A stretch of DNA of 63,508 nt, the filler included, from Squatina squatina (lineage: Eukaryota), in NCBI GenBank assembly GCA_031763465.1. It is 4 parts of 4 records of this genome, joined end to end, with 100 filler letters (N's around TTAATTAATTAA, not from the genome) between each part and the next. Parts side by side here need not be neighbours in the genome. Positions count along the whole stretch, not along the records: positions 49,785 to 63,508 come from JARFOE010000189.1; 3 more parts are not named here. One strand, 5' to 3'. Positions 51,070 through 52,898 of the stretch are shown here, in pieces (position 1 is the stretch's first letter; the number at the start of each line of letters is the position of its first letter). The notes under the pieces are model-generated. The model saw only the letters and a list, made by a program, of their open reading frames with translations. It did not search any database and had not been told where the DNA came from. The position numbers and the translations under genes were made by a program.

Positions 51070-51167
51070 GTTAATATGGAAACTGCAAGATTCTTCAAGT
51101 GTGACTTTGAAGAAAATGGATCAATGGACAATGTCTGTCTGTTTTTGAATCTTGCAAATGACCCAAC
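51070..51167 (+). CDS. V-type H+-ATPase subunit B (ATP6V1B family, B2-like) internal exon; not in ORF track
   Basis: [32 protein letters not shown](T), near-identical to the recalled ATP6V1B2 peptide; 98 nt with intact acag acceptor and gtaagt donor; paralog identity unresolved. Confidence 0.92.
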
Positions 51168-52803
51168 GTAAGTACCTCAAAATAACAGATCAGGAAGTGA
51201 GTTTTTCCCTCTTGCAGCAGCTAAACTTAAAAGGGTGTGTGTATGTATGAATCAGACCAGCTTCTGCAACTTGGGAGAATAGTACATTTTTGCAAGACGG
51301 CATGTGCTACAGCAGTGCATAAACATGCTTTTGAGGAAACTAGCAGATGTACTGATGCTTGTCAGTCATATCTTGGCGTACAAAAACTATAATTTTACAA
51401 CAGAGAATCTCTTTTCCTTGCCACTTTGTTTGGAAAATGTAATTATCATCGTAATNNNNNNNNNNNNNNNNNNNNNNNNNNNNNNNNNNNNNNNNNNNNN
51501 NNNNNNNNNNNNNNNNNNNNNNNNNNNNNNNNNNNNNNNNNNNNNNNNNNNNNNNAATACTCCTTGTGTGAAACACCATGGAGATTGACTTGTTAATTAC
51601 TAATTACAACTGGCCTATTCAGCTCCTTCTTAATTATAAATTTCTATGGCATTTATAGAAATGCTGCAGCTCAAAATGGTGTGCTGTAAAATTAGGTATT
51701 TTATAGCATAATTGTGTTTTGTTATACAAATGTTTAGAATTTTGGTACAAAAAGTAAACATGAAATTTTCCACTGTGGGATATCACGTCAATGTGAATTT
51801 TTTGATTTGTTTTAAAATAAATATCGAGTTATGTGATTGTTTTATGATCATTAAGATGGACAATAGAGCTGAGGTAAGGCGCTGTCTTTGATTATTCAGA
51901 CCTTGTGCTACAGATCATTGGTGACGTTGCAATAATACAATTTTTTTCATTAACTTACATTAATCCTGTGAATTACTGCTCATTTATTGTCACATTAATA
52001 CATTAATGTGTTAAATGTGTTACACAGTTTAATTATTTAATTGAAAATGATTGACTATCCAGTGGGTTCTCAGTCAATGGCATCACGACTCAAACAGTGC
52101 CTGGATGAATAGGTTGTGGTTTTGATGGAAATCCATTGTAATTGGGTTGAGATATAATTAAAGAATGTGATCATGCATCATAGTATTATGAATCTTGNNN
52201 NNNNNNNNNNNNNNNNNNNNNNNNNNNNNNNNNNNNNNNNNNNNNNNNNNNNNNNNNNNNNNNNNNNNNNNNNNNNNNNNNNNNNNNNNNNNNNNNNCAA
52301 TCCTGTTTATTTACAATGCCTACCAGTAATTATACTTAACATGTCATTAACTGAGAAGGGGGCCCTGCCAAGGAGACTGCCAGAAACTGTGAAGATTTCA
52401 GGGGGAGTTGCTGGAAGTCAGCACCATCAGAGGCTTTTAGTCTCTGATGGGATGCTGTGGTAGTGATTATAATGCAAGTATCAAGCTCATCAATTCATAA
52501 TTAGATGCCACTCAAATGTGCCACTTGTAATAACAGTGTTGATTCATGTTTTCTCTGTGACAGCATCTGTTAATTAGTTAAGTGGATTTGGTTGGCCTGT
52601 GTTTGCTGCAGTTTATGATTACCTCTGAAAATGTCAAGGTTACAAATGTTTTCTAGTCACCTTTTGCTGTGGAAACTTTTCTTTCTATATTCTTTGAATT
52701 GGGTGATGTAAAGATTTTTAAAAAAAATTTAATTGTTCAACTTGCTGTAATTTGGATGTTTTCATTAAGTGAAATGATCACAGGCAAATGTTCTTTATTG
52801 CAG

Positions 52804-52898
52804 TTTCAGAAATGGTGATTGAGGAAGTCAGTACAATACAAAGCCACCTTGACATTGAGAAAAGTTGCCGTGAAAGTGCAGAAGTATTTGCTTCAAAG
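52804..52898 (+). CDS. SHTN1: Shootin-1 coiled-coil exon; not in ORF track
   Basis: SEMVIEEVSTIQSHLDIEKSCRESAEVFASK resembles human SHMVIEEVNFMQNHLEIEKTCRESAEALATK; ttgcag/gtacat splice sites; convergent with ENO4 as in human. Confidence 0.85.

Follow-up and report, generated by a model that had tools for sequence, protein, structure and literature searches.

The B subunit of the V-ATPase belongs to the A3B3 head of V1, which hydrolyses ATP, and a third B paralog, atp6v1Ba (vatB1), was described by Müller et al. in 2013 on the segment equivalent to 10q26 (PMC3827601). In the available text of that paper, Ba adjoins vax1 and has shootin, slc18a, and gfra as further neighbours on that segment, and ATP6V1B1 also lies beside a VAX gene. 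Ba was kept in teleosts and gar and is found as remnants or in pseudogenic form in coelacanth, turtle, and human; B1 was lost in teleosts, and Ba, B1, and B2 are all present in gar (PMC3827601). Medaka Ba (tintachina) is expressed widely, with the highest levels in brain, retina, and pronephros, and lysosomes fail to acidify when it is lost (PMC3827601). The species list, as given in the available text of PMC3827601, contains no cartilaginous fish, and our literature search, which reached few subscription journals, returned no paper on atp6v1Ba in cartilaginous fishes.

We analysed a window of 63,508 nucleotides from Squatina squatina, a pack of four stretches, the last of which (49785-63508) is identical to scaffold C189 (JARFOE010000189.1) from position 3759919 and contains the locus described here. 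The V-ATPase B, SHTN1, and enolase exons all lie within this one stretch, as follows.

50556..51455, 900-base assembled piece bearing the V-ATPase B exon, with a 100-N gap on either side
51070..51167, plus strand, V-ATPase B subunit internal coding exon of 98 nt, AG before and GTAAGT after, paralog assigned by position
51456..51555, 100-N scaffold gap, size unknown
52198..52297, 100-N scaffold gap, size unknown
52804..52898, plus strand, SHTN1 (shootin-1) internal exon, AG/GT-bounded, found by tblastn with the catshark shootin-1-like protein P0136
60249..60366, minus strand, enolase C-terminal exon, convergent with SHTN1, Pfam PF00113 (Enolase_C), E 2.5e-7

A preliminary description had placed an intact 98-nt ATP6V1B exon on the same strand and scaffold piece as an SHTN1 exon facing ENO4, with two 100-N gaps between the two exons; the splice-bounded exons at 51070-51167 and 52804-52898 confirmed this arrangement, and both gaps are present. 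The window exon starts in phase 0, ends in phase 2, and translates into 33 amino acids, 32 of which equal those of mammalian V-ATPase B2 chains in a PDB search (E 1.7e-16); a profile search matched it to TIGR01040 (E 3.6e-12). The sole mismatch is a Cys for Ser at codon 11, so that the peptide is, as had been noted, B2-like with one replacement. The window exon is a real exon, and its match to V-ATPase B is far beyond chance. We take it to be exon 8 under a 14-exon layout, from which our other exon numbers likewise come. The 900-base piece has a single place in the assembly (C189:3760690-3761589), a genome-wide search found one copy only of the exon, and the ends of the piece showed no overlap of at least 12 bases with any other retrieved piece. 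With a probability of roughly 0.88, this exon is part of shark atp6v1Ba, the third jawed-vertebrate V-ATPase B paralog, just upstream of SHTN1. Under this reading, the 900-base piece would be correctly placed, the Ba gene would be complete and expressed in Squatina squatina, and Ba would have originated in the vertebrate genome duplications; going by the expected exon content, the final six exons of Ba and the opening exons of SHTN1 must fall within the two 100-N gaps.

Elsewhere in the window, we noted by eye an SH2-domain exon of an SHC-family adaptor (23518-23841, minus strand), one or more PDE4-type phosphodiesterase catalytic-domain exons (30227-31016, plus strand) with a C-terminal part at about 32364-32474 (plus strand), and an exon resembling the FCHO/SGIP1 family (47319-47651, plus strand). 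A broken CR1/L2-like retroelement (41117-42035, plus strand) and Harbinger-like transposase fragments (18932-19195, minus strand) were also seen.

The neighbourhood of the window exon was surveyed by tblastn over 200 kb, 49% of it N. The SHTN1 exon matched catshark P0136 at 73% over 37 amino acids (E 3e-10), and the enolase exon was presumptively named ENO4 from synteny. A second B-subunit exon, exon 2, lies outside the window at C189:3757987-3758042 (plus strand), 3.2 kb upstream of the window exon. Further upstream is an SLC18A exon whose best PDB matches are to VMAT2, hence SLC18A2, and upstream of that region are a PDZ-domain exon and a homeobox exon, both recognized by Pfam. The order is an EMX-type homeobox gene, a PDZ gene, SLC18A2, the B-subunit exons, SHTN1, and enolase; on this SLC18A2 segment, the B gene immediately precedes SHTN1. 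We take the PDZ-domain exon to be PDZD8, the homeobox exon EMX2, and the ORFs past the enolase gene HSPA12A; presumably, this is the human 10q25-26 order with an additional B gene before SHTN1. In catshark, the B-subunit protein XP_038629703 comes directly after the shootin-1-like proteins XP_038629699-702 on one 145-Mb contig; the consecutive RefSeq numbers suggest, short of proof, that Ba and shootin-1 are adjacent there as well. The earlier proposal had been to look for an ATP6V1B gene between VAX1 and SHTN1: exons 2 and 8 do lie upstream of SHTN1, but VAX1 was not found in the gapped region. Specifically, a motif scan of 400 kb gave no VAX1 or VAX2 exon, the 200-kb locus region being about half N, and one degenerate VAX pattern had no exact match genome-wide in an assembly too gapped to show absence. 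A search for the LZTS family gave four matches on three contigs, none of them on C189.

Genome-wide, a profile search returned 20 V-ATPase B exon matches, and a search with horn shark Ba returned 22. By translation, exons 4 and 13 are present in three versions each (Ba, B1, and B2 types) and exons 6, 9, 11, 12, and 14 in two versions each; the possibility, raised beforehand, that only two ATP6V1B loci exist did not hold. The first set of exons (C189:0.747-0.764 Mb, minus strand) matches shark proteins named "brain isoform," with exons 12 and 13 at 100%; the second matches the B1-like shark group; and the third, on small contigs and on scaffold C168, matches shark proteins named "kidney isoform" by RefSeq. 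At C189:0.75-0.77 Mb, the B2 locus and an SLC18A1-like exon are arranged head-to-head, bearing out the expected pairing of ATP6V1B2 with SLC18A1 at a separate place; provided that the 900-base piece is correctly scaffolded, the window exon is not at that locus. Ba exons 3, 7, 9, and 12 were not found in the assembly. Around the B1 exon on scaffold C163, the top 40 ORFs in 120 kb included nothing recognizable.

Exon 8 is absent from the B2 locus; precisely in its expected place there is a gap of 1437 N, roomy enough for the 900-base piece. These features would suit an alternative that we consider unlikely, in which the piece is ATP6V1B2 exon 8, moved to the Ba locus by a homology-guided scaffolder, with the Ba gene (exon 2) still present. 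B2 is on the same scaffold, 3 Mb away, and the window exon peptide is not diagnostic, being identical at 32/33 positions to all 17 proteins compared (11 Ba and 6 B2). Moreover, the Ba-diagnostic exons 4 and 11 were placed in an unrelated region of C168, at points 0.6 Mb from each other (L076:5514-6721, 7.55 Mb; L079:7263-7905, 8.16 Mb), so placement errors occur and contig order alone is not to be trusted; the C168 exon 4 adjoins ORFs that, with no Pfam match, we take to resemble the myosin XV N terminus. On the other hand, the window exon sits between Ba exon 2 and SHTN1 in the expected order and on the expected strand, and since paralogous exons differ by 16-22% at the DNA level, homology-guided placement should favour the true locus. 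The GC3 of the window exon (0.36) is nearer the Ba range (0.34-0.48) than the B2 range (0.38-0.61) and is below that of all seven placed B2 exons; its flank GC (0.38) is nearer the B2 range (0.37-0.45) than the Ba range (0.33-0.36). The link of the window exon itself to Ba is positional only, with a mixed base composition and a peptide equal for Ba and B2.

The Ba identity of the gene at this locus was evaluated through exon 2, which we compared with four public runs of other species, three of them presumed RNA (three studies, three organisms) and one DNA. In all three presumed RNA runs, one contig covers exon 2 with 4 of 56 letters different, and the exon match ends at both splice sites. Upstream, these contigs are identical at 29/30, 25/30, and 29/30 positions to the end of the Ba-type exon 1 on contig C1038185; downstream, they run on into exon 3. 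In the DNA run, exon 2 and its introns are covered at about 96%. Since the RNA contigs link exon 2 with an exon 1 of the Ba type, the locus as scaffolded carries the Ba gene, which is spliced in related species, and it is through this exon 1-exon 2 splice in three related species that a Ba-type N terminus is assigned to the gene at the locus. Seven Ba-side exons, a set without exons 5, 6, and 10 (for which no Ba assignment is possible), together encode 216 amino acids, of which 193-203 are shared with full-length shark and ray Ba proteins, versus 184 with the most complete B2 and 149-170 with B1.

Missing exons and unusual residues could also indicate that the Ba gene is decaying in Squatina squatina, as in coelacanth, turtle, and human, with the replacements as early signs. 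The codon-11 Cys was seen in none of 205 other proteins with the motif, and exon 2 carries two more replacements relative to the three related species. However, the Cys site holds Ser in 179 of those proteins and Gln (12), Ala (8), Arg (5), or Thr (1, horn shark Ba) in the other 26, and both exon-2 replacements have counterparts in B1 proteins. Each of the seven Ba-side exons found has an open frame, which makes decay unlikely, and where the contig extends over an exon's ends these are AG/GT; most shark Ba proteins show no difference from exons 4, 11, and 13, and an assembly split into 1.15 million contigs can be expected to lack some exons. We regard decay as very improbable. As a distinguishing mark of this paralog, the Cys failed: the chondrichthyan Ba proteins inspected (extra isoforms P0127, P0129, and P0132 left out) have Ser in 10 of 11 cases and Thr in one. 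The site is tolerant, and the Cys is either peculiar to this assembly or species or else erroneous. Among 20 sequencing runs listed in a search by sequence words, none contained half of the words, and none that had any is recorded as RNA.

The relationships among the three paralogs were examined with full-length proteins, as the preliminary description had advised, and in both trees the shark proteins fell into Ba, B1, and B2 groups. A first tree of 55 proteins was finished as a quick tree only; a careful tree (LG+G4) used 26 of the 55 rows, after removal of near-duplicates, of rows that were partial or on long branches, and of most outgroups. The outgroups were a moth and two further sequences, with no lamprey or amphioxus, and Squatina squatina, for which there is no full-length protein, is absent from the trees. 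SH-aLRT support in the quick tree was 95 for B1, 83 for B2, 86 for Ba, and 95 for Ba plus B2; in the careful tree, values were 95/96 for B1, 93/83 for Ba (under the starred level), and 97/93 for Ba plus B2. B2 was not one clade in the careful tree, where two chondrichthyan B2 rows lay outside tetrapod B2 plus Ba with weak support. Shark and ray-finned Ba proteins formed one clade apart from B1 and B2 in both trees, at moderate support and with an alternative joining shark Ba to B2 that the AU test did not reject (p 0.116); a B1 plus B2 clade had p 0.019.

The RefSeq name "kidney isoform" on the shark SHTN1-side protein might suggest that the window exon is ATP6V1B1 or that the SHTN1-side gene is the true B1 ortholog. 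Yet the careful tree places B1 of tetrapods and sturgeon with a different group of shark proteins (95/96), a Ba plus B1 clade had p-AU 0.045, and the window exon reads GSM where all eight shark and ray B1 proteins read GTM, so it is not B1-type. The same result was obtained for bony fish, as far as the available text of PMC3827601 goes, and we assign this possibility a very small probability. In sturgeon, a B1-group protein (P0212) was seen besides two Ba copies; B1 survives in chondrosteans too.

With respect to branching order, the trees lean towards Ba-B2 sisterhood; B1 evolves faster and the outgroups include no lamprey or amphioxus, so the root may be pulled. Müller et al., in the available text, leaned towards [Ba-B1, B2-B0], thought [Ba-B2, B1-B0] less likely, and left the topology open (PMC3827601). 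The second duplication has been described as the source of sister segments that now form parts of human chromosomes 2, 8, and 10, with chromosomes 4 and 5 standing apart (PMC10451939, available text); this sisterhood fits Ba-B2 and leaves B1, being also on chromosome 2, without placement. The part of PMC8040251 that was available does not settle the question.

Ba (3.76 Mb) and B2 (0.75-0.76 Mb) were observed on one scaffold, C189, 3 Mb apart, and the white shark Ba and B2 proteins are on records of the same size (122,117,421) with accessions about 80 apart. These observations suggest that, in sharks, a single chromosome carries both paralogous segments. The B2 neighbourhood (C189 0.66-0.86 Mb, L043-L062) contains sulfatase, GPCR, carboxypeptidase, DNA polymerase B subunit, hexokinase, and SLC18A1-like exons, as well as Mab-21, condensin Cnd2, TMEM127, WD40, and BRR2 exons; we take these to be human 7p13, 8p21, and 2q11 genes in one block. 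A DOK-like gene, represented by PH and IRS-type PTB exons (L038:4327-4704 and 6068-6328, C189 about 3.825 Mb), follows the enolase gene at a distance of about 60 kb. DOK1/DOK2 belong to 2p13/8p21, and a DOK-like gene near the Ba locus may point to the two segments being interleaved.

Compared with the described systems, the shark gene resembles atp6v1Ba of teleosts and gar (PMC3827601, available text) in its segment, its TACE and GQVY residues, and its Ba tree group, and differs in having a few private replacements and B2 3 Mb away on the same scaffold. Unlike teleosts, the shark keeps B1 and B2 besides Ba, as gar does (PMC3827601). Shark B2, at its separate locus beside SLC18A1, has residues of its own (TSCE, GQIY, and a GAKH end), unlike Ba. 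Human ATP6V1B2 (brain isoform; PDB 6wlz chain D) shares 32 of the 33 residues of the window exon, and its housekeeping role is likely alike. Human ATP6V1B1 (kidney isoform) is of the same family yet is not the ortholog of shark Ba; the gene orthologous to B1 in sharks is a third one, located on large chromosomes (records of 146-288 Mb). The preliminary description had postulated a third ohnolog kept in this lineage and lost in mammals: the third paralog stands, but it is not special to sharks, being kept in teleosts and gar according to the text of PMC3827601 at hand. Most likely, sharks kept all three copies, which extends the known bony-fish story and does not open a new one.

Shark Ba likely encodes a working B subunit of the A3B3 head. 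By orthology with medaka, it would probably be broadly expressed and help acidify lysosomes and other organelles in many tissues, and it may be partly redundant with B2. A relevance to acid secretion had been proposed for the window gene. We rejected a specific Ba role of this kind: in the available texts, medaka Ba is lysosomal and broad (PMC3827601), and the V-ATPase-rich cells of the shark gill secrete base, with the pump basolateral (PMC5269408). The C-terminal end of Ba is also -HQ, without a PDZ-like tail, in 11/11 proteins, and that of shark B1 is -THL in 7 of 8. The class I PDZ consensus fits both shark B1 -THL and human B1 -TAL. Of 25 chondrichthyan B proteins examined, 24, drawn from all three types, contain the epitope of the antibody used in the gill study, as given in the available part of PMC5269408.

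We would give an even chance to a joint reading in which all three B subunits persist in sharks and rays; Ba and B2 arose as sisters in the second genome duplication ([Ba-B2, B1-B0]) and now sit about 3 Mb apart on one shark chromosome; the RefSeq "kidney isoform" is Ba, and the true B1 has the PDZ-like -THL tail; and the gill antibody is blind to paralog, B1 being predicted as the basolateral one. RefSeq calls shark Ba (P0004, P0005, P0131, and P0134) "kidney isoform" and the true B1 ortholog (P0161, P0163, and P0168) "B-like" or "brain isoform(-like)," a naming trap, as the shark "kidney isoform" entries are Ba and not the ortholog of the human kidney-acidosis gene. The antibody for shark gill V-ATPase would not tell the paralogs apart, which makes the identity of the basolateral paralog in base-secreting cells a testable question, with B1 predicted, and the epitope shared across three paralogs offers a ready test for shark gill acid-base physiology. 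The three-paralog state now reaches cartilaginous fishes and, with them, the last common ancestor of jawed vertebrates.
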